DNA from: a virus
Direction: 5' to 3' (one strand)
Length of the DNA stretch: 64,000 nucleotides
Virus record (IMG/VR): IMGVR_UViG_3300042308_001616
Span: 58,861 to 122,860 of that record
In this document: in pieces, positions 14,801 to 45,346 of the stretch
Layout of the letters: every line of letters starts with the position of its first letter
Position numbering within the stretch: position 1 is the stretch's first letter
Translations under genes and position numbers: made by a program
Notes under the pieces: generated by a model
Databases searched by the model: none
What the model saw: the letters and a program-made list of their open reading frames with translations, nothing else
Told to the model about the DNA's origin: nothing

Positions 14801-15464
14801 TTGGCAGTCAAATGACACAAGTATATCAATACAATCAACTGGCACACAATCTAATCCAGATAGACCAGCAGTTCCGTCAATAATACTAACTGCACAACAG
14901 GTTATGTACACACAATTGGGTGCAACTGGTAATTCTGGATCTTCGGGTACATCTGGTTCATCAGGAACTTCTGGTTCGTCCGGTAGTTCAGGTTCATCCG
15001 GTTCATCAGGAAGTTCAGGTTCGAGTGGTTCGTCAGGAACGTCTGGTCTTCTATTATTGAATGGGTCGACCGATAATGGAATAATAACACTAAACGGGTC
15101 AGTACCAAATGCAACTGTCGAAACAAATCTAACATTTGACGGAAACACATTACGTGCAAATGCAAATGCAACAACTGTTCCACTTATAATTGCATCCGGA
15201 TCGTCTACACAGGATCTCGTGAGGATAACACAAACAGGAACAGGAAACGCATTCGTCGTAGAAGATAGTTCGAATCCGGATTCAACACCATTCGTTATAA
15301 GTAATACCGGAAATGTTGGTATCGGGACGGCATCACCAACCGACAATTTATCAGTAGCAGGAAATGTTAAAATAACCGGAACTATGAGTGGTTCGAGTAA
15401 CAATACAATACTTACGGACACACTCATACAAGCAGGCTTATTATACCTTTCTAACAACTGTTAA
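11883..15464 (+). CDS. Collagen-like repeat fibre protein 1 (1193 aa; tail fibre / fibril)
   Basis: Three Gly-X-Y tracts (mostly GSS/GTS/GIS/GES triplets) at about 12231-12420, 14349-14440 and 14943-15070. The N-terminal motif GSYGRLVQV..G..YYDGFGNLL and the C-terminal module (ITQTGTGNAFVVEDSSNPDSTPFVISNTGNVGIGT...LLYLSNNC) are both shared with the downstream giant gene. Confidence 0.8.
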   Translation: MSYNLTGVTVSGSYGRLVQVIHGSPDTYYDGFGNLLNLGPGTASVGPQGPTGPQGLSVNWMGPWDSMMNYFTYDMVSYDGNSYIYISNTPGSSITTPDSDPSKWDIMTQNIKGATGSIGATGSTGSSGSSGTSGSSGESGSSGTSGSSGISGSSGTSGSSGISGSSGTSGSSGISGSSGTSGINGATGPGFAGISAYIHVTSTYSITTNDYYIDANGSFDVILPLGVQGRSYAIKNTGTGVITVKGTASQLIDKLPSYNLAFYDTLIVESDGSNWLVQNTQTKTFIRVYNNTGSIIPKGTALKIQSTYNGIPSVSLPLASLHSTNQQVIGLAYIDIPNESEGIAISGGILSGLNLSSYSVGDILYLSDTIAGGFVNSTDSLQFSSRTNQIGYVTSTSSTIGTIQVEINNEDINLTLTDIERNILEGNVISTGVYHYLGMTKTSSITFTVASASGWIVKNTGELATKPDVQNVIYGGTTSITTPYLNSADSTYVLLTASSSLMLQSTFPSPQQRRENIFLGKVVHPDRQTILNVNNTVDYDVSPMSSLRDLWTPLKLVNQGIIPSAHSTTLEFNTSAGTLWGNGIGWTTNELNPNSVLIGGQSPVTFQYRTQMGGSFSNTTLIDPSHYDNAGTVTLVGGGNGSSTNQRIYLFPTGLIRVQYGQTVYGTLSEAITGTQEELFTEFVNNRDNGILIGILSINKNATNLSNPLQARFNFVSKFGEILGGSGGISTTTLQQAYDNSSTPEIVTNTSLGAVSFKRGSASDTDNVIEVLSGNGSNGVTFSVTGQGRTNTNTLTIHGIGATAGLTNYVVVDNSGNTYYQTGTIGSGSNGSSGSSGVSGSSGTSGSSGTSGVNGAGGTLGYYGSFYDTSNQFNLTASVPMAMTINSQYEANGVSIVDGSKMTFTHPGTYNLQFSTVFNKSNSNSGSVDIWFARNGDYITNSNTLFYAAGQATSIAAWNYMTTLNANDYIQLYWQSNDTSISIQSTGTQSNPDRPAVPSIILTAQQVMYTQLGATGNSGSSGTSGSSGTSGSSGSSGSSGSSGSSGSSGSSGTSGLLLLNGSTDNGIITLNGSVPNATVETNLTFDGNTLRANANATTVPLIIASGSSTQDLVRITQTGTGNAFVVEDSSNPDSTPFVISNTGNVGIGTASPTDNLSVAGNVKITGTMSGSSNNTILTDTLIQAGLLYLSNNC

Positions 15465-18500: not shown

Positions 18501-21500
18501 TAAGCATATATTTGGATAACAAGGATTCGAATTCAAGAACGGTTCAATTTCACACAGAAGGAACGGATGATTATTCTTATGTCATAACGTCTGTTGGTGT
18601 TGTGAATGGAACTTCTGGGTCTTCCGGTTCAAGTGGTTCTACAGGAACTTCCGGATCTTCTGGCTCATCCGGAACTTCTGGAACTTCTGGAACGTCTGGT
18701 TCTTCCGGTAGTGCAGGATCATCAGGTACAAGAGGTTCATCCGGGTCATCAGGAACTTCTGGTTCATCGGGAACTTCTGGTTCGTCTGGAACATCTGGAA
18801 CTTCTGGTTCGTCTGGAACATCAGGTTCGTCTGGTAGTTCTGGTTCATCAGGAAGTTCTGGTTCGTCCGGAACATCTGGAACATCTGGATCTTCTGGTTC
18901 GTCTGGAACATCTGGATCTTCTGGTAGTTCTGGTTCATCAGGAACTTCTGGTTCGTCTGGAACTTCTGGTTCGTCTGGAACTTCCGGTACTTCGGGTTCT
19001 TCCGGTACTTCGGGTTCATCTGGAACTTCCGGTACTTCGGGTTCTTCTGGAACTTCTGGAACATCTGGTTCATCAGGTACTTCGGGCTCTTCCGGAACAT
19101 CTGGTTCATCAGGTACTTCGGGCTCTTCCGGAACATCTGGTTCTTCTGGTAGTTCCGGTACGAGAGGATCATCGGGTTCTTCCGGAACATCTGGGTCATC
19201 CGGAACATCTGGGTCATCCGGAACGTCTGGTTCTTCCGGTTCATCTGGAACTTCTGGAACATCCGGTTCTTCCGGTTCGAGTGGGTCGTCCGGGTCTTCC
19301 GGGTCTTCTGGAACATCTGGTTCTTCCGGAACGTCTGGTTCTTCCGGTAGTTCCGGTACGAGAGGATCATCCGGTTCTTCTGGATCATCGGGAACTTCCG
19401 GGGTAAATGGAATCGACTCTGCGAGTTTTGAGTACACTTATAGTACAACGACCACTGCGTCGGATCCTGGATCAGGTTTCTTCAGACTAAACAACCTAAC
19501 TATGGGTAGTGCGACCTCACTTTACATAGACAGATTTGACAGAAATGGTAATAACGACTTACAAAACTTCTTCAGTTCGCTTACAAACTACGGTTCGACA
19601 AATAGACGAGGTTTCATAAAGATAACTAAACAGAACGACCTTACATGGTTTCAGACATATGAATTTAGTGCGACAACCGATAACACAGGATGGTGGACGA
19701 TTACCATAAATAACGTAATACTCGATGCCAACTTTACAAACAACGATTTGTGTTTTATCAGTTTCAATGTTTCAGGACCAACGGGAACAAGTGGGAGTTC
19801 AGGAACATCTGGTTCTTCCGGTTCATCTGGAACTTCCGGTACTTCGGGTTCTTCTGGAACTTCTGGAACATCTGGTTCATCAGGTACTTCGGGCTCTTCC
19901 GGAACATCTGGTTCATCTGGAACTTCCGGTTCTTCCGGAACGTCTGGTTCTTCTGGTAGTTCCGGTACGAGAGGATCATCGGGTTCTTCCGGAACATCTG
20001 GGTCATCAGGAACATCTGGTTCGAGTGGGTCTTCAGGAACATCTGGTTCTTCCGGTTCATCTGGAACTTCTGGTTCGAGTGGGTCTTCAGGAACATCTGG
20101 TTCTTCCGGTTCATCTGGAACTTCTGGGCCATCCGGGTCTTCTGGGTCATCTGGAACATCTGGTTCTTCCGGGTCATCTGGAACATCTGGTTCTTCCGGG
20201 TCATCTGGAACATCTGGTTCTTCCGGGTCATCTGGAACATCTGGTTCTTCCGGGTCTTCTGGGTCATCTGGAACATCTGGTTCTTCCGGGTCTTCTGGGT
20301 CATCTGGAACATCTGGTTCTTCCGGTAGTGCAGGATCATCAGGTACAAGAGGTTCATCCGGGTCATCAGGAACATCTGGTTCTTCCGGGTCTTCAGGAAC
20401 ATCTGGTTCGAGTGGTTCTTCCGGCACTTCTGGATTACTAAGTCTAACAGGTTCAACTGATAATGGTGTTATAACTCTCAATGGTTCCATTCCAAATGCT
20501 ATAGTTGAAAGTAATCTTACATTTGATGGTAGTATACTAAATGTGACTGGTCGTATTATTGCATCCGCATCAACTTCTACGGACCTTTTAAGACTAACAC
20601 AAGTAGGAACAGGAAACGCTTTTGTTGTAGAGGATAGTACGAATCCGGACATTACCCCGTTTGTTATACAGGGTGATGGAAAAGTCGCCATAGGAACTTC
20701 TTCCACCGTTGCAAACTTAGAGGTTAGAGCCAATGGTGCAAACGGTATATTACTGGGTCAAGATCTTGCAGCGAGTGGACAATCGAGTAGACTTTTCTTC
20801 AGCAACGGAACAGACGGACAACACATAGCAATACTCAATTCAAATAACGGAGGATTCGATTTCAGAACTCTATCAACTGCGAATGTTTCCACTGGAACTC
20901 AAAGGATGACAATTGCAGCAGGTGGTGATGTCTACATAGCACAGTCCCTCGGAATAAACCAACCAACACCTACTGCAAAAATACATGTGGTACCTGGTTC
21001 AACACAATCTGGTCTTATAGTTGCAGGTAATAGTGATCAAGATATGGTCAGGATAACACAGATAGGAACAGGTAACGCAATTATTGTTGAAGATAACACG
21101 AATCCAGACTCAACACCTTTCGTCGTTGATGCATCAGGAAACATAGGTGCAGGAACCGCATCACCATCAACAAAATTACACGTATTCTCTACGACGAGTG
21201 GTGCTATAAGAATAGTCGACGGAACACAGCAGAATGGATACGTACTTACATCCGATGCAAACGGGTTGGCAACATGGCAAGTATCATCTGGTGGTGGTTC
21301 ATCACTGAGTGGTACAATCAACTACGTTCCATTCTACAAAACAACCACAACACTATCATCTACGAGTTCGATACAGGTCTCTGGTGATACAGTCGGAATA
21401 GGAGTTTCATTCTCAAACACCGGTGGACCGAGTACAGACTACAGACTGCACGTAAACTATGGATCTGGTACCTACGGTGTTCTAATTGAAGGTGGTGGTG

Positions 21501-22813
21501 GAATTTCCGAAAACATACCACTTAGATTATGGGACAGTGGAACAGGTACAAACAATATAAATATTTTAGAGTTTGGACACGCAACTGCGAGTCCTAAACT
21601 ATATGTTCCGGGTGCACGTATAAAATCTACAAATCCTGGTTCCGGTGCAACAACAGGAGCTCATTTAATATTAGAAACTTCGTCAATATCAAATCCAACA
21701 TCAACAACTTGGAATACCAATCAACTCTATTTGAGAAATGATGGAAATGTAGGTATCGGAACAAATACACCAACTTCATATTTAACAATAAACACACCAG
21801 GTGGTTCATTGTATAGTGGTGGTTCTACAGGGGAACATGCAATATTAATAGGTAGTCAGTCCACTGGTTCTGTTGCTGCATATATAGGAACCGACGAAAC
21901 ACTTTCCGCGATGTACATACAATCTGGTATAAGAGGTGGTGCCGCAACTCCTATACTACTAAACGCACAGGGTGGAAACATCGGAATCGGTGTGACATCA
22001 CCTTCTGCAAAATTACACGCAGTAACTAATGTATCATCAATTCCGTTGATAATAGCATCCGGATCTACAACGGTTGATTTGGTGAGAATAACGCAGGTCG
22101 GTACAGGAAACGCTTTTGTGGTTGAAGATGCTACAAATCCAGATACCACACCATTTGCTATAACCAACACCGGAAAGGTAAAGGTTGGAACGACCGTCGA
22201 TTCAATCTATTCATCCAATATATATTCGATATCAACGACATATGGATTAGAGGCATATGGTGATTTAGCAGGAGTATACGCACGAGGATTAACTTATGGA
22301 ATTGTAGCAGAAGCGGCTACTGATGGAATGGTAGTTGCAGGTATTATGGCATCTGCAACAAACGACCAATTTATGTATGGAGTATACTACGGTGGAATGT
22401 TCTCGGCAAACTCATCAAATGGTGTCAATTACGCGGTAAGGTTACAGGATGGATCACAAGGATTGAACAAAGTTCTGGTGGACACCATAGGTGACGGATC
22501 TGCCAACTGGAAAAGTGATCTGAGTATAACATCAATCATAGCTTCTGCATCAAGTACTTCTGATATAGTAAGAATCACCCAAACCGGAACAGGAAATGCG
22601 TTAGTCGTTGAAGATTCAACAAATCCAGATGCAACACCTTTTGTTATAACATCTACGGGAAATGTTGCAATAGGAACACAATCTACAAATAACACACTAC
22701 ACGTACAGGGTTCTATGGAACTCACCGGAACATTCTCGGGTAGTAATTCTAATTTCGTAGATGCAAACCTTATAACACAAACCGTTCTACTCTATATGTC
22801 GAACAACACTTAG
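15512..22813 (+). CDS. Giant collagen-like repeat fibre protein 2 (2433 aa)
   Basis: Five Gly-Ser-Ser / Gly-Thr-Ser collagen-like tracts (about 53, 160, 315, 240 and 200 aa) separated by globular beta-rich domains. Four copies of the ITQ.GTGNA.VVED.TNPD.TPFV module. Apparent TTG start at 15512; its N-terminal motif is paralogous to fibre 1. Confidence 0.8.
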   Translation: MARNPKYQIRNLSTDGYGRLVQVVNGVYYDGFGNILSIGSVGSSGIIGGSSGTSGLSGNSGSSGSSGTSGLSGNSGSSGTSGSSGYSGTSGSSGTSGVSDKYKTTTVHTMPVPSVDDIILLESLDTGLAYTVGQSIILAESAYDYLEGIVQSYSPITGDMYVIVKYVVGSPDGPDFTINIDGTTGSSGTSGSSGISGSSGSSGTRGSSGSSGSSGISGSSGTSGSSGESGSSGISGSSGISGSSGTSGSSGESGSSGISGSSGTSGSSGESGSSGTSGSSGSSGASGTSGSSGESGSSGTSGSSGSSGASGTSGSSGTSGSSGSSGSSGTSGSSGESGSSGTSGSSGTSGSSGSSGTGFDTISNPSDNRLLTSDGTTNAAVAESNLTFDGSLLTMIGSSNFGTSSGTQNLYGSVISNDSFSIGTQQFFPQGNNGFSVNENFDASNSTSQTAYHFTSGSNTKNIVFTLAKTGEYTTVFGTDGSSTSNKFVIGSETSNTVFQFKSGLGIQPINLDGGSVMFEVATNSLFAPNIPSGTTETDILVRDGSGYITYRSDLSLSGTSGSSGSAGSSGTSGSSGSSGSSGSSGTSGTSGTSGSSGSSGSSGSSGTSGTSGSSGSAGSSGTSGSSGSSGSSGTSGTSGSSGSSGSSGTSGSSGTSGSSGSSGSSGTSGSSGSSGSSGTSGSSGTSGSSGSSGTSGSSGSSGSSGTSGSSGTSGSSGSSGTSGSSGSSGTSGSSGSAGSSGTSGSSGSSGTSGSSGSTGSSGSSGSAGSSGSTGSSGTSGSSGSSGTRGSSGSSGSTGSSGSSGSAGTSGSSGTSGSSGSAGTSGSSGSAGTSGSSGSSGTSGSTGSSGTSGAQGPQGISAGQIYYFNMSMTASVNGYRSLSTTPLPNGGTYSIETLTGNESGHLVETFMTDPLGFSIIPGGTQRFHLHFLKGAVGDDIEAYVSIRLSDSVGVPIGPTLSSNKQYIGWNDSTTNVEVLTDLTLPTTGIDPTNRMLVSIYLDNKDSNSRTVQFHTEGTDDYSYVITSVGVVNGTSGSSGSSGSTGTSGSSGSSGTSGTSGTSGSSGSAGSSGTRGSSGSSGTSGSSGTSGSSGTSGTSGSSGTSGSSGSSGSSGSSGSSGTSGTSGSSGSSGTSGSSGSSGSSGTSGSSGTSGSSGTSGTSGSSGTSGSSGTSGTSGSSGTSGTSGSSGTSGSSGTSGSSGTSGSSGTSGSSGSSGTRGSSGSSGTSGSSGTSGSSGTSGSSGSSGTSGTSGSSGSSGSSGSSGSSGTSGSSGTSGSSGSSGTRGSSGSSGSSGTSGVNGIDSASFEYTYSTTTTASDPGSGFFRLNNLTMGSATSLYIDRFDRNGNNDLQNFFSSLTNYGSTNRRGFIKITKQNDLTWFQTYEFSATTDNTGWWTITINNVILDANFTNNDLCFISFNVSGPTGTSGSSGTSGSSGSSGTSGTSGSSGTSGTSGSSGTSGSSGTSGSSGTSGSSGTSGSSGSSGTRGSSGSSGTSGSSGTSGSSGSSGTSGSSGSSGTSGSSGSSGTSGSSGSSGTSGPSGSSGSSGTSGSSGSSGTSGSSGSSGTSGSSGSSGTSGSSGSSGSSGTSGSSGSSGSSGTSGSSGSAGSSGTRGSSGSSGTSGSSGSSGTSGSSGSSGTSGLLSLTGSTDNGVITLNGSIPNAIVESNLTFDGSILNVTGRIIASASTSTDLLRLTQVGTGNAFVVEDSTNPDITPFVIQGDGKVAIGTSSTVANLEVRANGANGILLGQDLAASGQSSRLFFSNGTDGQHIAILNSNNGGFDFRTLSTANVSTGTQRMTIAAGGDVYIAQSLGINQPTPTAKIHVVPGSTQSGLIVAGNSDQDMVRITQIGTGNAIIVEDNTNPDSTPFVVDASGNIGAGTASPSTKLHVFSTTSGAIRIVDGTQQNGYVLTSDANGLATWQVSSGGGSSLSGTINYVPFYKTTTTLSSTSSIQVSGDTVGIGVSFSNTGGPSTDYRLHVNYGSGTYGVLIEGGGGISENIPLRLWDSGTGTNNINILEFGHATASPKLYVPGARIKSTNPGSGATTGAHLILETSSISNPTSTTWNTNQLYLRNDGNVGIGTNTPTSYLTINTPGGSLYSGGSTGEHAILIGSQSTGSVAAYIGTDETLSAMYIQSGIRGGAATPILLNAQGGNIGIGVTSPSAKLHAVTNVSSIPLIIASGSTTVDLVRITQVGTGNAFVVEDATNPDTTPFAITNTGKVKVGTTVDSIYSSNIYSISTTYGLEAYGDLAGVYARGLTYGIVAEAATDGMVVAGIMASATNDQFMYGVYYGGMFSANSSNGVNYAVRLQDGSQGLNKVLVDTIGDGSANWKSDLSITSIIASASSTSDIVRITQTGTGNALVVEDSTNPDATPFVITSTGNVAIGTQSTNNTLHVQGSMELTGTFSGSNSNFVDANLITQTVLLYMSNNT

Positions 22814-34491: not shown

Positions 34492-36642
34492 TTATATTAA
34501 CTTTTCAAATTTAATCTTTCCACAATCATAAACTCTAAAAAGTTTATTTATTTGTGCATATTCTGACTCTGTCAAATATGTTTTCGTTTTAGATTTTTTA
34601 TATCTGGATTTATGAACCCTATTACCATCAACTATATACTTATAGTCTGGTAGACTTTCACTCACCTTTTCAAATCCTAATTGATAATAAAGATTACCAA
34701 CAGACCAATCACGATCCGCATAACTGATAACCCTTTTAGGTTTAAAGTTTCTAATAAAATAACTAAATAGTTTTGATGCACCACCAATTACCGTAGTATT
34801 TATAGAATTACAAAATCTATTGATGTTCCAATCAGATTCTGACATTTTTTTACGACCTTCGAAATGATCAAATGTCATCAAGCTAACTAATTGATTATTA
34901 AAAATCAAACCTAATTTCAAACAACTATTAACCTTACCCTGAATATGATTTTTTTCTAAAAAAGTCATAGCTGTTTTTGCATCAACTTCTATTATAGAAC
35001 ATTTTCTAGCATAAATAGTATTACTAATTTTATTCAACATATTTGAAATTTGTGACTCAATTATACTCCTTCTCATAACCCAATCATCCTCCCAAATATG
35101 AATAATACGTATATCTTTATTCCTAAAAAAATTAGTTTTATTTATGTGGTAATTTTTATTCTTATATTCACTACTGTGCCAATAAAGACCATTAAACTCA
35201 AATCCAATACCCAGATCAGGAAGATAAATATCTATCTCTAAATCATCTCTATAACCAGATATTACCTCACCATCATATATCCCAGTTATATAATTAAGTA
35301 ATTCTTTTTCCATTATAGACTTATTATCCCCAATAGGATAACAAATGGTACAAATAGGATTGCCTGAATTGGTTCTTTTTATATAATTGTCAACACCTAT
35401 TATAAATTTATGGTCTTTACCACAGTCACATATAAATAAACTATTCGAGTCAGAAATGTATTGAATATAATTTAAGTCATTTGCAACAATATATTTATTC
35501 TTTCTAAATTCTTCAGATTTTTGAATATTATCAATTCCAAATTGATTAATATTTGTCAATTTTGTTTTTTCTTTAGACTCATTTGTTTTAGAATAATTAT
35601 CAACACCATACTTTTCCAGACTCGTATTAACAACTTTATATTTAAACAAAGATGACTTAGAATGGTGTTCTACACCATATCTTTCTAAATTGGTATCTTT
35701 AGACTTCTTCTTAAAACTATCACTCTGATAATACCAATCAACACCATATTTTAGTTTATTAGTTATTTTAGTACGATTATTATACTCATCAGTCTGTGCA
35801 TAATATTTTACACCATATCTCTCTAAATTAGTCTTTGATGATTTATTTCTGAAGTCATCACTCTGATAATAGAATTCTGAACCATATTTTTCTTTATTTG
35901 TTTTAGTAACACGATTAAGAAATTCATCCGTCTTTGAATAATGATTTACACCATATTTCTCTAAATTAGTATTTAATGTCTTTTCTTTATACTCATCTGT
36001 TTGTGTATAATACTCTACACCATATTTCTCTAAATTTGTATTTATAGTCTTTTCTTTATACTCATCCGTTTGTGTATAATGTTCTACACCATATTTTTCG
36101 AGATTTGTATTTACTCTTTTGTCCTTTACCGAATCTAATTGTGATATGTGAGAAACTCCATATTTACTATTTATATTGTCGGACCATTTTTTCCTTACCT
36201 CCTCATTTTGAAAACTAGACTTATGGCCATATCTTTCTAAATTAGTATCCTCAATTTTTTTCTTTACTAAATCACTTTTTGCAACATTAGTAACTCCGTA
36301 TTTCTCTAAATTTGTTTTAATCCTCTTCTCTTTGGTTGATTTGTCAGATTGTGCACATTTAGGAGAACAATAATTTCTATAACCATCTAACCAGTTTTTA
36401 TTGAATGTAGTAGGATTACCACAACAACATAAAAATTTATTATCTATATCATTTACCCAATACCATAACTTTTCTTTAAAAGAAATATCTTCTATATTGG
36501 AACAAAAATCGTTTATTGTAGTAACAAGTTCTTCATAATTTTTCTCAAAAAAAGATTCACGTAATCTTGATGATGAACCATCAAGTATATCTAATATTAT
36601 TTTTTTCCTTTCTTCTATCATAAAGTATATATAAAGTAACAT
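34492..36642 (-). CDS. Putative free-standing homing endonuclease: Zn-ribbon N-terminus, ~12 tandem 22-aa repeats, Vsr-like PD-(D/E)xK nuclease domain
   Basis: N-terminus CCCGNPTTF...YCSPKC. Repeats of consensus TNLEKYGVxxYxQTDEYKEKT. Nuclease motif EIDIYLPDLGIGFEFNGLYWHS (E..G..WH as in Vsr/Tlr8p-PBCV-like HEs). Sits beside the major capsid gene. Confidence 0.55.
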   Translation of the reverse strand: MLLYIYFMIEERKKIILDILDGSSSRLRESFFEKNYEELVTTINDFCSNIEDISFKEKLWYWVNDIDNKFLCCCGNPTTFNKNWLDGYRNYCSPKCAQSDKSTKEKRIKTNLEKYGVTNVAKSDLVKKKIEDTNLERYGHKSSFQNEEVRKKWSDNINSKYGVSHISQLDSVKDKRVNTNLEKYGVEHYTQTDEYKEKTINTNLEKYGVEYYTQTDEYKEKTLNTNLEKYGVNHYSKTDEFLNRVTKTNKEKYGSEFYYQSDDFRNKSSKTNLERYGVKYYAQTDEYNNRTKITNKLKYGVDWYYQSDSFKKKSKDTNLERYGVEHHSKSSLFKYKVVNTSLEKYGVDNYSKTNESKEKTKLTNINQFGIDNIQKSEEFRKNKYIVANDLNYIQYISDSNSLFICDCGKDHKFIIGVDNYIKRTNSGNPICTICYPIGDNKSIMEKELLNYITGIYDGEVISGYRDDLEIDIYLPDLGIGFEFNGLYWHSSEYKNKNYHINKTNFFRNKDIRIIHIWEDDWVMRRSIIESQISNMLNKISNTIYARKCSIIEVDAKTAMTFLEKNHIQGKVNSCLKLGLIFNNQLVSLMTFDHFEGRKKMSESDWNINRFCNSINTTVIGGASKLFSYFIRNFKPKRVISYADRDWSVGNLYYQLGFEKVSESLPDYKYIVDGNRVHKSRYKKSKTKTYLTESEYAQINKLFRVYDCGKIKFEKLI
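35500..36340 (-). repeat. Tandem ~66-bp coding repeats (22-aa KYG repeat units) inside the homing endonuclease gene
   Basis: Visible periodicity in DNA and protein (TNLEKYGV.. x ~12). Confidence 0.6.
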
Positions 36643-36784: not shown

Positions 36785-38497
36785 TTAGTTAAGGAATTGA
36801 TTCTCATCAGTAACGTTAATAGTCATAAATTGTTTGTGTGGGAACCATCCAACCTCGGCAACTGCATACCTAGATCTTAGTAACATTCTTGGTGCAAAAG
36901 TTGCTTCAGAAATAACTGAGATAGATTGAGCCATTAAGTAAGGAACGAAGATGATACCTGGTTGATCAGGGTTATTCTTTCTACCTAAAACGATTCTGTT
37001 GTCATTATATCTCATGTATGGATCAACATAGATAGCGATATCTCCGATTGAACCTACAGGGTATAATTGACCTTGTCCGTTTAATTTAGACTTCAATGGG
37101 TTAATTGTATAACCAGCGATGTCTTGAAGAGCTGCAGCAAGACCCCCGTTTGTGATAAGGTATTGAGCAGGACCTACACGACCCTCAGTTGCGATGAAGT
37201 TAGATGCGTGAGCAATCTTAGTAATCAATTTTCTTTGAACTGCGTGAGTAGTTTCACCACCAATATTAGCAGAAGCAGCATAAGTAGTATCTAAATCGAA
37301 GATTGTCATACCAGCTGTGTATCCAGCAACGTTAGTGTTAGCAGCAGGAGCAGAAGCTCTGTTTAATTGTCCCATTTCGAAAATCTTAGCAACGATTTGC
37401 TTAGAAATTGTTTGTGACAATTCGTTAACAAGGATAGATTCCATTTTTTGAACGATATCCATACCTGTGTTAGCTTTGATATCTTCAATCTCAGTTCTTC
37501 TAAGTGCAGAAGATACTTCGATAGTACCAACTTGGATAGTCTTAGATGAAATCTTAGGTCCGATAACACCAGCATAAGAATCATCATCGATATCCCTGTT
37601 CATTGGATAATCACCAGACTGAACGTTAGCTGTCCAGTTTGCAGAGAAACCTGGGATGTGATCTTCTAATGTAGATACTAACTCGATAGTAGGTGTAGCA
37701 GTAACAGCTTGAGTACCAATGTTCTTGATTTGCGAAGCCATAGACTGAGTAGGGTTGAAAGAGTTTCTAGTTGCGTCGAAAGACCATGCAGTCAAAGCAG
37801 AACCAACTGCAGTGTGAGCAGTGTTTGCTTGTCTCCAAGCTCTGAACATTGGGTAACCATCTACTCTTGAGAATCCTAAGAATTCAAGAACTCCTACTTT
37901 ACTAGCAGATTCTGCTGGAGCTGTAGTTACGAGTGGGTTAGAAGAACCGAAACCATTTACGAATAATCTACCACCTTGAAGACCACCTGTAGTATTTGTT
38001 GTTCCTGCGGCAAAACCAGCTTCTAATGCAGTTTTGATATCAGCTTGGTTAGCTGGAGTTGTAGCCTTAAGTTTGAAAACTTGTGGTCTCTCATCACCAG
38101 AACCTAATCTTGTGTCATCATATTGGAAATCGATGTAAAGTAAATCGATTTTCGGACCTGGAGTTGGTTTAACAGCAACAAGGTCAAGACCAATAGTTTG
38201 AGCAGCAATTTTCATAGCTACTGGTAAAAGGTTTTGTCCTACGTCTCCAGAACCTGCTACGTTACCAAGTGCATTTGAGTAGTTACCTGGGTTACCCGCA
38301 AATGAACCAACTGTAGCATTTGAAACTGGACCCATACCTGCTACGTTAGAAGCATTTACGTATGCGTTTTCGTTGATTGAGTGAAACTCAGCGTATTCCG
38401 CCATCCATTCTACTCTATCACCAATGACACCCATATTCTCGAGAACTGGTGCCCATTTTTTAGTGGCTTTCGCCTTGTCTATCCTAATGTGTGACAT
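36785..38497 (-). CDS. Major capsid protein, T4 gp23-like
   Basis: 570 aa. Segment LLPVAMKIAAQTIGLDLVAVKPTPGPKIDLLYIDF resembles T4 gp23 LIAFDICGVQPMNSPTGQVFALRAVY. Gly/Ala/Thr-rich and GC-richer than surroundings (highly expressed). A TATAAATATATAG late-promoter-like motif lies ~40 nt upstream. Confidence 0.85.
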   Translation of the reverse strand: MSHIRIDKAKATKKWAPVLENMGVIGDRVEWMAEYAEFHSINENAYVNASNVAGMGPVSNATVGSFAGNPGNYSNALGNVAGSGDVGQNLLPVAMKIAAQTIGLDLVAVKPTPGPKIDLLYIDFQYDDTRLGSGDERPQVFKLKATTPANQADIKTALEAGFAAGTTNTTGGLQGGRLFVNGFGSSNPLVTTAPAESASKVGVLEFLGFSRVDGYPMFRAWRQANTAHTAVGSALTAWSFDATRNSFNPTQSMASQIKNIGTQAVTATPTIELVSTLEDHIPGFSANWTANVQSGDYPMNRDIDDDSYAGVIGPKISSKTIQVGTIEVSSALRRTEIEDIKANTGMDIVQKMESILVNELSQTISKQIVAKIFEMGQLNRASAPAANTNVAGYTAGMTIFDLDTTYAASANIGGETTHAVQRKLITKIAHASNFIATEGRVGPAQYLITNGGLAAALQDIAGYTINPLKSKLNGQGQLYPVGSIGDIAIYVDPYMRYNDNRIVLGRKNNPDQPGIIFVPYLMAQSISVISEATFAPRMLLRSRYAVAEVGWFPHKQFMTINVTDENQFLN

Positions 38498-38531: not shown

Positions 38532-38547
38532 CTATATATTTATACAA
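38532..38547 (-). promoter_or_regulatory. Late-promoter-like motif TTGTATAAATATATAG upstream of the capsid gene (contains the T4 late consensus TATAAATA)
   Basis: Read on the minus strand; ~40 nt before the start codon. Confidence 0.45.
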
Positions 38548-38583
38548 TATGCTATTTTTTGAAGCGCCTGGATTTTTTATAGA

Positions 38584-40683
38584 TTAGATGTTTTTGAACC
38601 TTTCCATTATTGCAGACATTTCATCGTCAGACAACTTATCCTCTTGGATGAGTGCTTCGTGAGATACAAGCTTTTTAGTAGTGGATTCGTTCGTTTTGAG
38701 GTTTCTGGTTGACCAGAAATGCTCGATTTGAGACTCAGTCTTCAACATATCAGCTGGATAAAGTCTTGCTTGTGATAGCAAAGATTTTTTACCTGATTCG
38801 TTTAATTGACTCCAGATTGACTTAGTGTTTTCTGGCATAAGTCTTACTATTCTCTCTTCGAGTGTCTCAGTTGTAGTAGAAAGTGCCTCTGAAATGAGTG
38901 CAAGAACTTCTTTCTGTGTGAAATAACTTCTTTCGTTTATGTGAAGTTTCACAGCTTCTTGCTCCTCGTTAGTGAGTGCGTAGAAACTATCTACTTGTGA
39001 TTTGGACATAAACTTAAGAAAGTTCAAGTCACTTGTCTCGGAAACTTTACGTTTTTTAGCTTCTTCGATTAATTTATCAATAGATTCTGATAATTCAGAA
39101 TCTGAATTTCCTGTAATATTTTCATATAAGTCATCGTGAGATTCTTCCTCGTGAGATTCTTCCTCGTGTGCGTTTACTTCTTCAGGTGAAGTTTCAGCAA
39201 CACCGTTAGGTCCACACTCTTCTTCTTCCACTTCTTCTTCTTCTTCTTCTTCTTTTTCGTTATCTAATGAAGCAAAGTGATCAGTAAGAACTGGGAAACC
39301 ATCCTCTGCAGATTCGAAAACTTTTCCACCATTCAATTTCTCTGTAATTAAACCAGCGTAAGAAATAGTTTTGTCTAAGTTCTCAGCGATGTATTCAGAA
39401 TAAGCGATGTTATCATCAAGGTGCTCAGCGATGTACTCAGAGTAAGCGATGTTACCTTCTACGTGCTCAGCTAAGTATTCAGAATAAGCGATTGAATTAT
39501 CAACGTGCTCAGCGATGTACTCAGAATAAGCGATATTTTTATCTAAGTTCTCAGCAATGTACTCAGAATAAGCGATATTTTTATCTAAATTCTCAGCAAT
39601 GTACTCAGAGTAAGCGATATTTTTATCTAAGTTCTCAGCAAGGTACTCAGAATAAGAAATGTTTTTATCTAAATTCTCAGCGATATACTCAGAATAAGAA
39701 ATGTTTTTATCTAAATTCTCAGCAACATACTCAGAATAAGCGATATTTTTGTCTAAGTTCTCAGCAAGGTACTCAGAATAGTTAACTGCCTTCTCAAGGT
39801 TCTCAGCTAAATAATCATTATGCTTGATAAGTTTTTCGGTAGTCTCTTTTAAAGACTTGTTCTCGTTTACCATAATCTGAACTTTTTCAGCTAAGTAGTC
39901 AAGATATTGGACAACTTTAGAGTTATCATTGTTGAGTTGCTCGTAATACTCAATAAGTTGCTCCAACTTCTTAGGGTCCATATTGCCTTTAGAGATGGCG
40001 TTTTTGACTTGCTTCTTAGTGGTAGCGAGCTCTTTGACCAAGTACTGCGAGTAGTCAGTCAACTGTTGTTTGGTAACGTACTCGTTCCTGTTCATGTTGA
40101 ATAAATCATTTATTTTTGACTCATCGGACATCTCATATATCCTAAAGTTAGATTTCGGGTTATCGAGGCCAAGAGATTCATTTAGAACTTTCACATTCAT
40201 TTTGGCAGAGGCGAACCCCGGATCAGCCACAATGTCGTATGTGAAAAGCTTCTTCAATGAGACCGTGCCATCAGATTCAGTGATACCTGCTGCGCGTGAA
40301 GAAACGAAAAGAGGACATCCGTCATCGACGAGTGCCTTAGCTTCTTTACCCCAATAGGTGCTCAATAGTCTGATTTCGCCCGATACCAGGTTAGATTCCT
40401 TAACATACTCAGCTTTAGTGATTATGTGGGAAGCCCTGGAAAGTGAGGTGTCGAAAACATCCGGGTGGTCGAACTCTCCATAGACTACACCGAGGTTATT
40501 CATTCTCTCGTTCATCTCTTGAAGTGCCGGAAGGAATCTGTTAGCAGTATAAACCCTCTCATTTCTGTTCTTAATATCGAACTCGGTGAAGGTTCCACCT
40601 AAAACATAATCCTTGTTACCAGACCCGTTGCTCTCTCTCACAAGAGAGTTTGTAGAGTTTTCTACAATCAATACTGGTTTCAT
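38584..40683 (-). CDS. Prohead core protease (T4 gp21-like) fused to a repeat-rich scaffolding region (gp22-like coiled coil)
   Basis: N-terminus GEFDHP...SGEIRLLSTYWGKEAKALVDDGCPLFVSSRAAG resembles T4 gp21 (GELGHP). Middle has ~14 tandem copies of AENLDKNIAYSEYI. C-terminus is acidic and helical (EEEEEEEVEEEE). Confidence 0.7.
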   Translation of the reverse strand: MKPVLIVENSTNSLVRESNGSGNKDYVLGGTFTEFDIKNRNERVYTANRFLPALQEMNERMNNLGVVYGEFDHPDVFDTSLSRASHIITKAEYVKESNLVSGEIRLLSTYWGKEAKALVDDGCPLFVSSRAAGITESDGTVSLKKLFTYDIVADPGFASAKMNVKVLNESLGLDNPKSNFRIYEMSDESKINDLFNMNRNEYVTKQQLTDYSQYLVKELATTKKQVKNAISKGNMDPKKLEQLIEYYEQLNNDNSKVVQYLDYLAEKVQIMVNENKSLKETTEKLIKHNDYLAENLEKAVNYSEYLAENLDKNIAYSEYVAENLDKNISYSEYIAENLDKNISYSEYLAENLDKNIAYSEYIAENLDKNIAYSEYIAENLDKNIAYSEYIAEHVDNSIAYSEYLAEHVEGNIAYSEYIAEHLDDNIAYSEYIAENLDKTISYAGLITEKLNGGKVFESAEDGFPVLTDHFASLDNEKEEEEEEEVEEEECGPNGVAETSPEEVNAHEEESHEEESHDDLYENITGNSDSELSESIDKLIEEAKKRKVSETSDLNFLKFMSKSQVDSFYALTNEEQEAVKLHINERSYFTQKEVLALISEALSTTTETLEERIVRLMPENTKSIWSQLNESGKKSLLSQARLYPADMLKTESQIEHFWSTRNLKTNESTTKKLVSHEALIQEDKLSDDEMSAIMERFKNI
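39290..39815 (-). repeat. Tandem 42-bp repeats (14-aa unit YSEYIAENLDKNIA, ~12-14 copies) within the protease-scaffold gene
   Basis: Near-identical 42-nt units, e.g. CTCAGCGATGTACTCAGAATAAGCGATATTTTTATCTAAGTT repeated. Confidence 0.7.
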
Positions 40684-40816
40684 GCAATTGCTTATTTTTT
40701 GTGCGTTAGAGTATATATAACCGGTTTATCGTCCCCTTTTGATATACACGGATTTTTTATGGTGAATATTTTTGAACATGTGTAAACCAATTTGATTTAA
40801 TGAATAAAATAGGCGA

Positions 40817-41221
40817 GTGGATTTTTTACATATGATAATCACAAGAGAAATTTCGATAAGAATAACAGAGTCGAACTACCAGTATTACGACGACTTAGGG
40901 TATGACACCTCAATTGGTGAGGTAATCGTTATACCGGTGGAATTATTACCACGTGGATCACATCAAAAGATAAAGTGTGGTTGTGATGGCTGTGGAATAG
41001 AAAAAGAGGTTATATTTAAGAACTATTTGAAATATGATAACGACTGGGGACAATACTATTGTAGGAAGTGTTCAGAAATCAAAAGAAAAGAAACCCTCAG
41101 GAAGAACCATGGAGTTGACTACCCTATACAGAATAAAAAAATACTCCAAAAGATGAAACAAACGCTGGTTAAGAGATATGGCGTGGATAACATCGCAAAA
41201 CGAAAAGAAAAAGATGATTAA
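40817..41221 (+). CDS. Small Zn-ribbon protein with two KYG-type repeats; truncated paralog of the 34492-36642 endonuclease N-terminus
   Basis: CGCDGCG...CRKC plus RKNHGVDYPIQNKKILQKMKQTLVKRYGVDN. Its stop overlaps the RNase R start (ATGATTAA). Confidence 0.45.
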   Translation: MDFLHMIITREISIRITESNYQYYDDLGYDTSIGEVIVIPVELLPRGSHQKIKCGCDGCGIEKEVIFKNYLKYDNDWGQYYCRKCSEIKRKETLRKNHGVDYPIQNKKILQKMKQTLVKRYGVDNIAKRKEKDD

Positions 41222-43112
41222 TTACAAAGAGGGTGACGAGATAGTCGCACAAATTGAGTTCGGACATTCAGGGAATGCACAAATAAAAATAGAAGATAGA
41301 GAGTTCTTTATCCATAAGAGTAAAACTTTAAACTCACTACATTTGGACACAGTGAGAGTAATACTATTCAAAGGTCAGAAAAAAATAGAGGCTAAGGTAA
41401 TAGAAGTAGTTTCGAGATTCAAACAAAACTTTGTAGGAACTGCACAGGTAAAAAAAGACACAACATTTGTTGTTCCTGATAATCCGAAAGTACATGTAGA
41501 TTTCTATGTTAGAGGAAAACATGAAGCAGAAGATGGACAAAAGGTTCTTGTGGAAATGACCGATTGGAAAGAAGATTCAAGATCACCCGCCGGAAGGATA
41601 GTCAAAATACTTGGTAGAAAAGGAGAGAATGAAACTGAGATGAACTCTATAATGTATGAGTACAACCTACCAATCGACTTTCCTCAAGAAGTTATCAATG
41701 AGGCAGTATTAATCTCAGAAGTTATACCAGAATCCGAAATAAAGAAAAGAAGAGACATCAGGTCTTGGACGACAATCGGAATAGATCCACACGACTCAAA
41801 AGACGCAGATGATACAATCGGTCTACACTTCGAAAATGGTAAAAGACTAATCTCTATAAACATAGCGGATGTCTCACACTACGTAAAACCAGGTAGTGAG
41901 CTCGACAAAGAAGCATATAGAAGATCCAGTTCGGTATATTTAGTAGACAGATGTGTTCCAATGATACCACACAACCTATCAAATGGTATATGTTCGTTGA
42001 AATCTGGAAGTGATAAACTTTGTTATTCTGTTATTGTTGAACTAAATAATGATGGAAGGATAGAGGATAGTTGGTTCGGAAGAACTATAGTAAGAGTTGA
42101 TAAAGATTTCTCTTATGAAATGGCACAAGAGGTAATCGATAGAGGAACTACCGAAGTAGAAACTGAAAAAGTAATACTCGAATTAGATAGACTCGCCAGG
42201 AAGATGAGGAAAAGAAGATTGGCGGGTGGTTCACTCGAAATTGGTGGAGTTGAAGTAAAATTCAAATTGGACGGAGATGGTAAGAAACCGATAGGTGTAT
42301 ATCTTAAGGAACAAAAAGAGGCAAACCATCTTATTGAGGAATATATGTTACTTGCCAACCGAGAGGTAGCAAGGTTCATAAAGTCAAGAAAGTTACCTTG
42401 TGTTAATAGAATACACGAAGAACCGTCAGAAGAGAAATTAGAACACGTGAAGACTTTCATATCTGGTCTCGGATATATGATAAACTACGGATCAACACCA
42501 GAGAAGACAAAATTGGCGATAAATCAACTTATGAAAGATGCAAAAGGAACTCCCGAGGAGAACATCATAACCACTTTAGTAATAAGAGCACAACAGAAAG
42601 CAAAATATTCGACAAGGGATTTAGGTCACTATGGATTAGGTTTCCAACACTATTCACATTTCACAAGTCCAATTAGAAGATATAGTGACATACTAGCACA
42701 CAGACTTCTTTCGAGAGCACTAAACTCAGAAGGCTATAATAAGGATGTAAACTTCGGTGAACTAGACAAACAATGTGAATGGATTTCTAAACAAGAGATG
42801 GCAGCGTCGAAGGCACAGAGAGATTCGGTGAAGTACAAACAAGCAGAATACCTACAAGATAGGATAGGACAAGTTTTCGAGGGTATTGTCTCTGGAGTTC
42901 TCGAAAGAGGAATATACGTAGAACTCAACGAAAGTAAGTGTGAGGGAATGATTAGAATCTCAGAGATGGGTGGAAAGTGGACAGCATACCCGGACAAATA
43001 TGCAGTTATGAACGAGTTTGGTGAGACGATTCGATTGGGAGATACAATCAAAATCGTTATAAAGGCAGTAGATCTTGAAAAGAAACAAATTGATTTTATA
43101 AAATTCAACTAA
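41214..43112 (+). CDS. RNase II/R family 3'-5' exoribonuclease (OB/CSD domains, RNB catalytic domain, C-terminal S1)
   Basis: RNB motifs YLVDRCVPMIPHNLSNGICSL and HYGLGFQHYSHFTSPIRRYSDILAHRLL; C-terminal S1-like GIVSGVLERGIYVEL. An alternative upstream ATG at 41178 is possible. Confidence 0.8.
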   Translation: MINYKEGDEIVAQIEFGHSGNAQIKIEDREFFIHKSKTLNSLHLDTVRVILFKGQKKIEAKVIEVVSRFKQNFVGTAQVKKDTTFVVPDNPKVHVDFYVRGKHEAEDGQKVLVEMTDWKEDSRSPAGRIVKILGRKGENETEMNSIMYEYNLPIDFPQEVINEAVLISEVIPESEIKKRRDIRSWTTIGIDPHDSKDADDTIGLHFENGKRLISINIADVSHYVKPGSELDKEAYRRSSSVYLVDRCVPMIPHNLSNGICSLKSGSDKLCYSVIVELNNDGRIEDSWFGRTIVRVDKDFSYEMAQEVIDRGTTEVETEKVILELDRLARKMRKRRLAGGSLEIGGVEVKFKLDGDGKKPIGVYLKEQKEANHLIEEYMLLANREVARFIKSRKLPCVNRIHEEPSEEKLEHVKTFISGLGYMINYGSTPEKTKLAINQLMKDAKGTPEENIITTLVIRAQQKAKYSTRDLGHYGLGFQHYSHFTSPIRRYSDILAHRLLSRALNSEGYNKDVNFGELDKQCEWISKQEMAASKAQRDSVKYKQAEYLQDRIGQVFEGIVSGVLERGIYVELNESKCEGMIRISEMGGKWTAYPDKYAVMNEFGETIRLGDTIKIVIKAVDLEKKQIDFIKFN

Positions 43113-43113
43113 A

Positions 43114-43560
43114 ATGGGAAGGTTAAAGTCGAAAGAAATGGTCGTACACACCTTAGAAGTAGAATTGAATGATGATGAATCACTCGACTACTACGAGAGT
43201 CTACTCACCAGGTACAACCAATGGAAGGTATTCAAAAGAGAGGTCAGACTCACTGGTCTACTGAATTCTGGTAAGAAGATACAATTCGACATAGAAGACG
43301 CGAACCTACTAATATACACAGATATGGATGCCATACAATACATACACAAAGCAGTCTTCCGTGCAGACAACATAAAATTTATATTGAAAGACGAAGAAAT
43401 AGTCAGTATGTCATTGTCCGGTGAGATAATTCCAACATCGATGGGAACTTGTATAAAAGGAATATTGGACGAAGGAATACCACTAAAGATAAAGAAGTAC
43501 AACGACAAACAAGGTAGAATAATTTTCTACATAGACATAGAAGACGACAAAGCAGCATAA
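43114..43560 (+). CDS. Hypothetical protein (148 aa), immediately downstream of RNase R
   Basis: ORF; start 1 nt after the RNase R stop. Confidence 0.45.
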   Translation: MGRLKSKEMVVHTLEVELNDDESLDYYESLLTRYNQWKVFKREVRLTGLLNSGKKIQFDIEDANLLIYTDMDAIQYIHKAVFRADNIKFILKDEEIVSMSLSGEIIPTSMGTCIKGILDEGIPLKIKKYNDKQGRIIFYIDIEDDKAA

Positions 43561-43612: not shown

Positions 43613-45346
43613 TTAGAATTCGAATTCGGCACCACCTTGAGCACCACCCTGTGCTGGAGGAGCTTGAGCACCACCCTGTGCCGGAGGAGCCTGAGCACCA
43701 CCTTGTGCCGGAGGAGTTTGAGCACCACCTTGAGCACCACCCATATCACCACCTTGAGCACCACCCATATCACCACCGCCACCACCTTGAGCACCACCTT
43801 CACCCGGGACTCCGGAACCGATAGTTGTTGCATCTTTGGTCCAATATCTTGCATTCTCTGCTTTCTCTTCTGGTGTAAGTTTGAATATGTGGTCCATTAT
43901 ATACTCTATGTGGAAATATGGTTTCTCACCATTCATAACACCAAGCATTGTTCCTACAATACCTGCTTTCTTCTCTAGGTTACCCAACTTTTTCCACTCT
44001 TCAAAGACCTGATTAGAGTAAAAGACTATGTCCATTTGGTTCATAAACCTATCATCTTCAATCAATTCTGGAAATTCGATGAGCATCTGCATCTTTAGTG
44101 GTTTAACAATTATCTCTTTGAAGTTAGATCTAAGTCTACCTATGAAGTTGTGAAACTTAATCTCATCTCTCGTCATCTCAGAAGCCTCGGTTACTAAGTT
44201 ACCACCACCACTTTCACCTTCGAAACGGTTTAGTGGAATCTTACTTGCACGTTTCAATGCCTGGTGAAACCATTTTAGCATTCCGTCTTCGTTTAGGTCG
44301 TGTCCCTGTGGTGACTTCAACTCCATTGAAGGAGAACCCGCATCACCTTCTGGAAACCAAATCTGTTTGTTGAAAGGAAGATGTTTAGAGCCATTGATTG
44401 TGAGTGTACCTAAAGTGTCATCCCACTCAACTTCCTCAGAGTAATCGTGTATCAGTTGACCTATCTGTTCTTCGGCTCTCTGTCTGGAAAGACCTTTAAT
44501 AGGAATTTTAAACTCCTGATAAAGTGTTGCATTGATAATGTTGAACATTATCTTAGTCTGTTCAAGAATTTTGAGCTGGTTGTATGGTCTTATGAGTCCT
44601 TCTACGTATGATGTCTCAGAATAGTCATTCTGTGTAGAGAATGATATAAAAACAATCTGTGAGTCTAGGAATATTCTTCTAAGTTGTGGATCTTCCGGAT
44701 ATTGTATCCAGAGGTGTCCTACGTTTGGTTCGTATGCAGGAAGTATCGTCTCTGGACGTAATCTATTGAATGCTACTATGTTTTTCTTTTTGTCGTCATA
44801 TACAAGCTCTATGGCTACATATCCATCTACGAGGAAATCCTTCATCATATTAAAGGCGGTTATACTATCTGAAAATCCATATTTGTTGTATATTGATTCG
44901 AAGTATTCTTGATACTTATCATGTATTTCTTTGTTATAATCCGAACTTAGTGGTCTTGGTGAACAGAAATCACGATCATCGTTATAAACAATACATTCAT
45001 CTGCAACTTGACTCACAAAGTCTCTTATCTCATCTTTTATAGAGTATTCTCTTAGAATTCTTCGTTTATCTGGATAAGACCTATCGAGATATGGTACAGA
45101 CTTCCTGTTCAAAACCGATGCCACTGCCCTGGATGAGAAAAAATCATACATCGAATTTCCTTTAGAAGCATATGGATCCTCATTGATTCCTATACCAACC
45201 TGGTTACGTATGATCATATCATCATAGTTCATTCCATGGTTAGAAAGGTTTCTAAGTATCCTATTAAAGAAGCCCTTATTTTCTCCTGAGTTTTGTATAG
45301 AACCCAGATTCTGTTCATTGTTGTTAAAATAATTATAAGAGGCCAT
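43613..45346 (-). CDS. Portal vertex protein, T4 gp20-like, with low-complexity GGAQ/PPAQ repeat C-terminal tail
   Basis: VSQVADECIVYNDDRDF (cf. T4 gp20 VSEIVSDAIVYEDDTEV) and LKWFHQALKRASKIPLNRF (cf. IRWFRQALYMALRVPLSRI). C-terminal ~70 aa are GGAQGG / AQAPPAQGG repeats. Confidence 0.85.
   Translation of the reverse strand: MASYNYFNNNEQNLGSIQNSGENKGFFNRILRNLSNHGMNYDDMIIRNQVGIGINEDPYASKGNSMYDFFSSRAVASVLNRKSVPYLDRSYPDKRRILREYSIKDEIRDFVSQVADECIVYNDDRDFCSPRPLSSDYNKEIHDKYQEYFESIYNKYGFSDSITAFNMMKDFLVDGYVAIELVYDDKKKNIVAFNRLRPETILPAYEPNVGHLWIQYPEDPQLRRIFLDSQIVFISFSTQNDYSETSYVEGLIRPYNQLKILEQTKIMFNIINATLYQEFKIPIKGLSRQRAEEQIGQLIHDYSEEVEWDDTLGTLTINGSKHLPFNKQIWFPEGDAGSPSMELKSPQGHDLNEDGMLKWFHQALKRASKIPLNRFEGESGGGNLVTEASEMTRDEIKFHNFIGRLRSNFKEIIVKPLKMQMLIEFPELIEDDRFMNQMDIVFYSNQVFEEWKKLGNLEKKAGIVGTMLGVMNGEKPYFHIEYIMDHIFKLTPEEKAENARYWTKDATTIGSGVPGEGGAQGGGGGDMGGAQGGDMGGAQGGAQTPPAQGGAQAPPAQGGAQAPPAQGGAQGGAEFEF

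Follow-up and report, generated by a model that had tools for sequence, protein, structure and literature searches.

The open reading frame (ORF) at positions 38584..40683 (-) of the 64,000-nucleotide stretch analyzed here (IMG/VR virus record IMGVR_UViG_3300042308_001616, positions 58,861 to 122,860; hereafter the window) probably encodes a polyprotein of the prohead core, in which a maturation protease of the T4 gp21 type is followed by a long repeat-built rod that we read as scaffold. The most probable reading, in our judgment, is that of a self-releasing and self-destructing core protein belonging to the T4-like head module of a huge phage of the Mahaphage type. The ORF is complete, running from an ATG start through 699 codons to a stop, as a single frame of this length had originally been predicted.

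A structural model computed with AlphaFold2 (AF2) from an alignment of 84 sequences has a mean predicted local distance difference test score (pLDDT) of 70.5 and resolves a series of distinct regions. A beta-rich protease domain occupies approximately aa 25-165 (pLDDT >90 for ~aa 31-160) and is followed by a loop at aa 167-174 (pLDDT <50), two helices at aa 188-198 and 201-232 (pLDDT about 73-86) and then one unbroken helix of 214 residues, ~32 nm in length, covering aa 237-450 (pLDDT 67-86, ~50 distally). Beyond this helix lie a disordered, acidic stretch (aa 452-527, pLDDT <50) and a helical C-terminal domain comprising aa 528-660 and a helix at 686-698 (pLDDT about 80-87). The domain plan, with the basis of each assignment in parentheses, is the following:

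40189..40683 (-), aa 1-165: gp21-type prohead serine protease domain (AF2, Foldseek, PHROG, invariant residues)
40168..40188 (-), aa 166-172: predicted self-cleavage site V-L-N-E169/S-L-G, the slash marking the cut (alignment conservation)
39895..40122 (-), aa 188-263: non-repetitive helical lead-in to the rod (AF2; weak similarity to the scaffold of phage 121Q)
39307..39894 (-), aa 264-459: 14 in-register units of 14 aa or 42 bp (Tandem Repeats Finder, TRF; self-similarity)
39349-39810 (-), aa 292-445: 11 well-conserved units within the array (consensus [ILV]AENLDKNI[AS]YSEY)
39103..39306 (-), aa 460-527: acidic, predicted disordered linker (pLDDT <50)
38587..39102 (-), aa 528-699: all-helical C-terminal region (its conserved domain being the last 162 aa, from aa 538)

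This plan modifies the original prediction, which placed an acidic E8VE4 tail at the end of the protein. The stretch reads E7-V-E4 and lies within the linker (aa ~460-527), with ~210 residues, including the conserved helical domain, following it. The C-terminal domain, the motif within every repeat and the conserved junction site had been overlooked.

Protease domain, predicted cleavage sites and repeat rod

When the N-terminal domain is compared with the PDB using Foldseek, the top three matches are the chains of 5JBL, namely T4 gp21 (E 2.4e-6 to 4e-6, probability 1.0), with target-normalised template modelling scores of 0.66-0.69 (0.68 at E 2.4e-6); the model matches essentially nothing else in this database. 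His73, Ser128, Ser129 and Asp150 are invariant in the alignment, His73 corresponding to T4 His85 and Ser128/129 to Ser140/141. Proteases of the T4 family have a His/Ser/Asp triad (PMC5694885), and the equivalence of Asp150 to its Asp is drawn from the alignment alone. Searches with sequence profiles retrieve the phrog_207 family 'head maturation protease' (1.3e-30) and 5JBL itself at E 0.005; the score with Pfam PF03420 Peptidase_S77 is 18.6 bits, under the cut-off of 27, and the protein is thus a divergent member of the gp21 type by sequence. A single-sequence search of the PDB with the polyprotein returned nothing relevant. Among predicted viral structures, the protease domain matches long 'prohead protease/scaffold' proteins, including those of Tenacibaculum pT24 and PTm1. 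The motif GELGHP previously quoted for the T4 protease should read GELNHP.

The protease domain is directly followed by a site, V-L-N-E169/S-L-G, which we predict from its sequence to be the point of self-release. Across the 84 sequences E169 never varies, N168 and S170 are kept in 92% and G172 in 87%, and position 167 is L, I, V or M in 83, within what the AF2 model presents as a loop of pLDDT <50. The site aligns with I-T-E187-S near the C-terminus of T4 gp21, and C-terminal self-cleavage has been shown for the related proteases of phiKZ and SPN3US and suggested for gp21 (PMC5694885). T4 gp21 cuts after Glu in the motif L/I-X-E, and the pieces to which it reduces gp22, gp67 and gp68 exit the head (PMC9026906). 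The repeat motif [ILV]-A-E matches this pattern and is likely to be a cut site; the chances that every unit is cut by the protease seem to us evenly balanced. A check for cleavage motifs flanking the repeats, proposed with the original prediction, yields the predicted junction site L-N-E169/S ahead of the rod and [ILV]-A-E inside the repeats too.

Motif counts can be set against the expectation from shuffled sequences. [LIV]AE is present 12 times in the rod (0.7 expected), 6 times in T4 gp22 (1.3 expected) and 8 times in the scaffold of Escherichia phage 121Q (1.0 expected), while the rod of the cultured jumbo phage PTm1 contains 20 instances of [LIV]xE (8.2 expected). The capsid protein encoded next to the ORF has a predicted propeptide site of the same kind, I41-N-E43/N44 (38366-38377), at the end of its N-terminal segment, where the protein may be trimmed; the pattern [IML]-x-E-N is kept in six relatives and in PTm1. 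The residue following the motif Glu is Asn in most repeats, likewise at the capsid-protein site.

The array had been described as ~14 near-perfect copies. Eleven units are clear (aa 292-445), two degenerate ones precede them (aa 264-291) and one follows (aa 446-459), so that 14 copies are reached only by counting the three degenerate units. The repeats are near perfect as peptides but not as DNA, since no two 42-bp units are identical, the best pair agreeing at 41/42 positions and most pairs at 27-40/42. At 39365-39780, TRF detects 9.9 tandem copies of 42 bp with 84% matches and a score of 503, and self-similarity of the protein scores 480 at a lag of 14 residues and <=33 at lags that are not multiples of 14, a periodicity well above what chance would give. 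Each unit begins with [ILV]-A-E-[N/H]. In ~1300 units selected by profile from ~140 diverse relatives, position 1 is L/I/V in 93%, position 3 is E in 77% and position 11 is Y/F/H in 89%, the further most-conserved positions being 9 (I) and 14 (Y). Compared with orthologous units of two related genomes, the repeats show 56 synonymous and 13 non-synonymous codon differences (LR745206), and 57 and 18, respectively (LR756502); the repeat peptides are under strong purifying selection.

Fourteen residues make two heptads, and the best register, read by eye from the sequence, would bury Ala2/Ile9 and Leu5/Ser12 in a core and leave the two tyrosines outside. The strongest internal period is 14, 28 or 42 aa in 114 of ~142 family representatives (>=500 aa). 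The metagenomic relative P0177 (630 aa) has at aa 298-402 five nearly identical units of 21 aa, or three heptads, FAEHVAEHTNEAKKDIEIVGK, each with two hydrophobic-Ala-Glu motifs (FAE and VAE), which indicates that the conserved trait is a period multiple of seven together with the hydrophobic-Ala-Glu motif. No paralogue of the repeat was found elsewhere in the 64-kb window. A match of the repeats to Pfam PSCyt2 (DUF1549) is below cut-off and looks like a repeat or coiled-coil artefact, and profile matches to designed coiled coils are compositional.

The acidic linker contains, besides E7-V-E4, two copies of HEEES and two further TRF rows (39134-39168 and 39218-39258), and in close relatives it is between 82 and 109 aa long. 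The C-terminal domain is characterized by the motif MPxxxKxxWxxLxExxKxxIxxQA...FWxTRxL; it matches no known fold and is common to fusion proteins annotated as prohead core scaffold in Tenacibaculum pT24 and PTm1.

Relatives and integrity of the fused ORF

Close matches in 50,697 phage records are limited to six uncultured huge-phage genome records: LR745206 (635 kb), LR756502 (642 kb), LR756504 (636 kb), LR756500 (462 kb) and the pair LR756501 and LR756503 (735 kb), which give identical matches. Al-Shayeb et al. 2020, whose largest genomes measure 634, 636, 642 and 735 kb, placed these in the 'Mahaphage' clade with the Lak megaphages and predicted Bacteroidetes hosts (PMC7162821). A single ORF of the same plan, with the capsid gene directly after it, is present in all five distinct complete genomes (462-735 kb). 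The best 120 proteins of a collection of 5.8 billion are 677-731 aa long and 72-100% identical to the query; in every one of them the repeat block stands behind an N-terminal part of protease length, and these proteins are thus fused too. The single-ORF plan is equally found in each of the best 80 IMG/VR contigs whose ORF is uncut by the contig end. More widely, 234 representatives of clusters at 50% identity match at E <= 1e-30, most of the best 150 being 560-975 aa long with matches spanning protease and rod, and relatives occur in at least 585 IMG/VR contigs.

These comparisons bear on a doubt raised with the original prediction, namely that two genes appear fused here only through a frameshift or misassembly, or that assembly has shortened or lengthened the repeat. 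Tandem 42-bp repeats are prone to misassembly in principle, yet nothing was found in favour of such an error here. Five distinct complete genomes, manually curated, and hundreds of contigs of independent origin have the same ORF, all units differ in DNA, and the 11 units recur in unchanged order in independent assemblies that are 99% and 95% identical. The comparative data across independent assemblies therefore lead us to dismiss a frameshift or misassembled repeat, the probability of which we consider negligible.

Scaffold reading and comparison with known systems

The part of the protein beyond the protease is read as scaffold because of its gp22 position and because it is helical, acidic and dense in motifs of the type cut by the protease. 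It sits between the protease and the major capsid protein, the position of gp22 in T4 and of the scaffold in 121Q; the genes follow the order portal, insert, protease-scaffold ORF and capsid protein, and a separate gp22 gene is absent there. The proposed fusion of a gp21-like protease to a scaffold is supported by this gene position, together with the 5JBL fold and the invariant catalytic residues.

In the mechanism that we propose, many copies of the coiled-coil-type rod, each ~30 nm long, would bundle into an internal core on which the gp23-type shell assembles, the C-terminal domain being the most likely contact to the shell or portal. Closure of the shell would activate the protease, which may then free itself at E169 and trim the capsid protein at I-N-E43/N. 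If the rod is cut after the Glu of every [ILV]-A-E, it would fall into 14-residue peptides of ~1.6 kDa, e.g., NLDKNIAYSEYIAE, which would be small enough to exit the shell and leave room for >600 kb of DNA. Such a design with one motif per repeat, if true, would account for the removal of a bulky core from a huge shell.

Several observations weigh against this reading. Homology to T4 gp22 is not detectable (blastp E 9.3), the polyprotein matches no scaffold family of Pfam or PHROG, and the scaffold of 121Q is no more than weakly similar (37% over 86 aa; E 0.004 with a database of six sequences). All proposed cleavages are predictions from a three-residue motif, whose conservation cannot separate a cut site from a helix interface, since the I/L at position 1 and Ala2 could be kept for coiled-coil packing; moreover, the conservation of unit positions is inflated by the selection of the units by profile. 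The AF2 model is that of a monomer and its pLDDT drops to ~50 in the distal rod (aa 400-450). Finally, fusion imposes a protease to scaffold ratio of 1:1, unlike the T4 core with about 100 gp21 to 576 gp22 (PMC5694885).

The last discrepancy would be relieved if an internal start also yielded a protease-free scaffold, so that most core subunits would be without protease. A conserved Met (LFNM196N) lies just past the protease domain and would be suitably placed for such a start. Lambda C/Nu3 and herpesvirus UL26/UL26.5 provide precedents of this arrangement, while P2 gpO works as a single fused product. T4 has ~six times as much gp22 as gp21 in its core (PMC5694885). The promoter-like sequence WATATATA is not found inside the ORF, which weighs little against an internal start because the function of the motif is itself putative. 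On balance we regard two products as unlikely. We give even less credence to the idea that rod and C-terminal domain are not a scaffold and form instead a permanent protein inside the head, inner-body-like or ejected, or an external fibre delivered with the protease. Some jumbo phages do keep ordered internal protein bodies (PMC13282480), 121Q displays a bubbling pattern like that of an inner body (PMC5646251) and the C-terminal domain is without known fold. Against this alternative, the gene occupies the gp22 slot with no other scaffold candidate in the head module, the rod, like T4 gp22, is dense in protease-type motifs and no paralogue lies within the window, so that we find it quite improbable.

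T4 gp21 (5JBL) and gp22 share with the present protein the protease fold, the His and Ser residues and the order portal, protease, scaffold and gp23-type capsid protein, and gp22 is likewise a helical, acidic scaffold crowded with [LIV]-x-E. T4 differs in having two genes for what is here one ORF, and gp22 lacks both the regular 14-aa array and the extra conserved C-terminal domain; equivalents of gp67 and gp68 are not seen beside the present ORF. The closest cultured relative with split genes is the Rak2-like Escherichia phage 121Q (gp601 protease and gp602 scaffold), whose protease is 35% identical (E 1e-21) and whose scaffold has eight [LIV]AE. Its two genes share a frame, with a stop codon and 66 nt between them. 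Unlike the present phage, 121Q has no 14-aa periodic array, and it combines a T=28 capsid with a 349-kb genome (PMC5646251).

Fused forms are found in phages of Bacteroidota. The proteins of PTm1/PTm5 (564 aa) and pT24 (527 aa) are annotated as 'prohead core scaffolding protein and protease' or 'prohead core scaffold', the likeness of pT24 being seen solely as a structural match to the C-terminal domain. PTm1 and the Lak phages, with Bacteroidota hosts, have one ORF composed of protease, spacer, acidic region and the same C-terminal domain (MP..W..L.E..K...FW), and in PTm1 this ORF lies between the portal and capsid genes. Their spacers differ from the present rod: that of PTm1 consists of 16/32-aa repeats with L-S-E motifs and prolines, that of Lak is a long acidic disordered stretch without repeats, and neither has the 14-aa array, the group with this array having no cultured member. 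The protease-scaffold ORF of Lak-B2 (MK250021) has in-frame standard-code stops where Lak-A1 (MK250016) has Gln, which fits the stop-codon recoding reported for Lak phages.

Protease-scaffold fusions are already known as a kind, and the fusion of PTm1 is annotated in public databases. In P2 gpO, lambda gpC/Nu3 and herpesvirus UL26/UL26.5, a maturation protease at the N-terminus is linked to a scaffold at the C-terminus; having freed itself, the protease removes the scaffold. All of these fusions belong to different lineages, and those of P2 and lambda also employ other families of protease. To our knowledge, none of these fusions, compared here by description only, has a rod of regular tandem repeats in which each unit carries a single cleavage motif. 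The herpesvirus assemblin shares the gp21 fold (PMC5694885). Our literature searches (Mahaphage, jumbo-phage scaffold fusions, scaffold length versus T-number, PTm1) found no description of this protein, and no paper on the fusion in T4-like huge phages, the 14-aa array, the motif-per-unit design or the C-terminal domain, nor any that analyzes the fusion proteins of PTm1, pT24 or Lak.

Rod length and capsid size

The rod may bear on how size is set in very large icosahedral capsids (probably with triangulation number, T, above 50); the largest phages are uncultured. The original prediction suggested that the repeat acts as a molecular ruler and that copy number makes capsid size evolvable. In this proposal, which is compatible with the polyprotein reading, the number of 14-aa units (2.1 nm each) determines rod length and thereby capsid radius or T-number, and the gain or loss of units provides a route for the evolution of capsid and genome size in the clade. 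We consider the ruler and its evolutionary corollary, taken jointly, possible but doubtful.

The number of units does vary by whole units only. Proteins among the best 120 have 9, 11 or 12 of them; the counts for the best 80 IMG/VR contigs are 9 (1 contig), 10 (11 contigs), 11 (55 contigs, the mode), 12 (7 contigs) or 13 (4 contigs), and members of the wider family have up to about 18. Units are gained or lost in the middle of the array, where they are most uniform; the opening unit and the final four remain orthologous. These 80 contigs are all fragments of <=276 kb and hence add no genome sizes. For the five distinct complete genomes, rod length was taken as the span between the invariant Glu of the junction and the point where the periodic block ends:

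LR756500, 462 kb: 243 aa
LR745206, 635 kb: 277 aa
LR756502, 642 kb: 279 aa
LR756504, 636 kb: 287 aa
LR756501, 735 kb: 304 aa

Rod length in these five genomes correlates with the cube root of genome size (Pearson r = 0.98, p = 0.003; Spearman 0.90, p = 0.037), but two of them are close relatives of each other, the correlation ignores phylogeny and it depends on the chosen anchors. Larger genomes also have a longer acidic linker (59 to 168 aa), and the signal may thus reflect a general length trend. By our own arithmetic, one unit amounts to ~3% of a ~70-nm radius or ~9% of volume, the right scale for differences of 100 kb. The rod itself, at ~30-40 nm, is roughly half the expected capsid radius of ~70-80 nm, as extrapolated from Hua et al. 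2017 (PMC5646251), who give T=28 and an inner diameter of 132 nm for 121Q, and T=52 and 160 nm for phage G. Other phages with the fusion do not follow the trend: Lak megaphages (541 kb, same clade) have an acidic disordered spacer without the rod, and the spacer of PTm1 (225 kb) is ~229 aa long, nearly that of the 462-kb phage. Whole-unit changes, moreover, would arise from replication slippage alone. The whole-unit variation and the trend of rod length with genome size (n=5) speak for the ruler, and Lak and PTm1 depart from any simple scaling.

That the two-heptad rod is a true length gauge of the largest known phage capsids, with the repeat doubling as a built-in cut pattern, appears to us slightly more doubtful. 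If it were true, each unit would add ~2 nm, slippage would shift the T-number and, with head-full packaging, genome size, and the 9 to ~18 units found across hundreds of uncultured lineages would form a natural record of the growth of capsids beyond 600 kb. One protein combining a protease, a rod that varies in discrete 2-nm steps and a conserved, putative docking domain offers a testable handle on the problem, and the abundance of the family (>=585 IMG/VR contigs, 234 representatives) makes comparative tests possible once more complete genomes exist. Should the ruler fail, the protein would be an ordinary but neat variant of the protease-scaffold polyprotein theme.

Head-module neighbourhood

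The neighbours of the ORF fit a T4-like head module, which includes the following features:

36785..38497 (-): gp23-type major capsid protein, presumed partner and substrate (Pfam Gp23 9.1e-27)
43613..45346 (-): gp20-type portal, upstream member of the head module (Pfam Portal_T4 1.9e-57)
58061-60205: large terminase
40712..40757 (-): promoter-like motif pair AAAAATCCR ... ATATATA, upstream of the protease-scaffold ORF
38533-38577 (-): the same promoter-like pair, upstream of the capsid gene

The two-part motif (AAAAATCCR, 25-50 nt, ATATATA) has 2 matches against 0.01 expected. WATATATA occurs 44 times across the window (12 expected), with none inside the protease-scaffold ORF, and lies ~30 nt before the start codons of the capsid, portal and protease-scaffold genes, those examined. 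Similar motifs are present upstream of orthologous genes in related huge phages. The pair is a candidate late promoter and resembles the T4 late promoter TATAAATA.

The head module looks like a target of homing endonucleases. Directly downstream of the capsid gene, 34492-36642 (-) encodes a homing endonuclease of 716 aa (phrog_3339, 5e-134) with three DUF7487 repeats, and a 134-aa N-terminal fragment of a phrog_3339-like homing endonuclease is found at 40817-41221 (+), just upstream of the protease-scaffold gene. In PTm1, a 'Hef-like homing endonuclease' occupies the matching place after the capsid gene, and the head module of LR756500 contains two long ORFs, of 537 and 599 aa, whose C-termini are similar; one is located upstream of the portal gene, the other after the capsid gene. 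An opposite-strand block at 40817-43560 (+), between the portal and protease-scaffold genes, contains the gene of a nuclease of the RNase R/RNase II type (RNB, two cold-shock domains and S1; Pfam RNB 1.5e-98) along with a 148-aa ORF without family match. Portal and protease-scaffold genes are adjacent in LR756501 and LR756500, and this block is therefore a lineage-specific insertion.

No tRNA genes were found in the window. The C-terminus of the portal (43613-43800, -) is a tandem repeat rich in Gly, Ala, Gln and Pro, with GGAQAPPAQ-like units followed by GGAEFEF; the portals of relatives have Gly/Pro-rich tails too, several of which end in EFEF. At a distance from the head module, two long ORFs at 11883-15464 (+) (1193 aa) and 15512-22813 (+) (2433 aa) have many matches to collagen-like and tail-fibre repeats and lie in a region with a G+C content of 0.43-0.46, compared with ~0.35 elsewhere.

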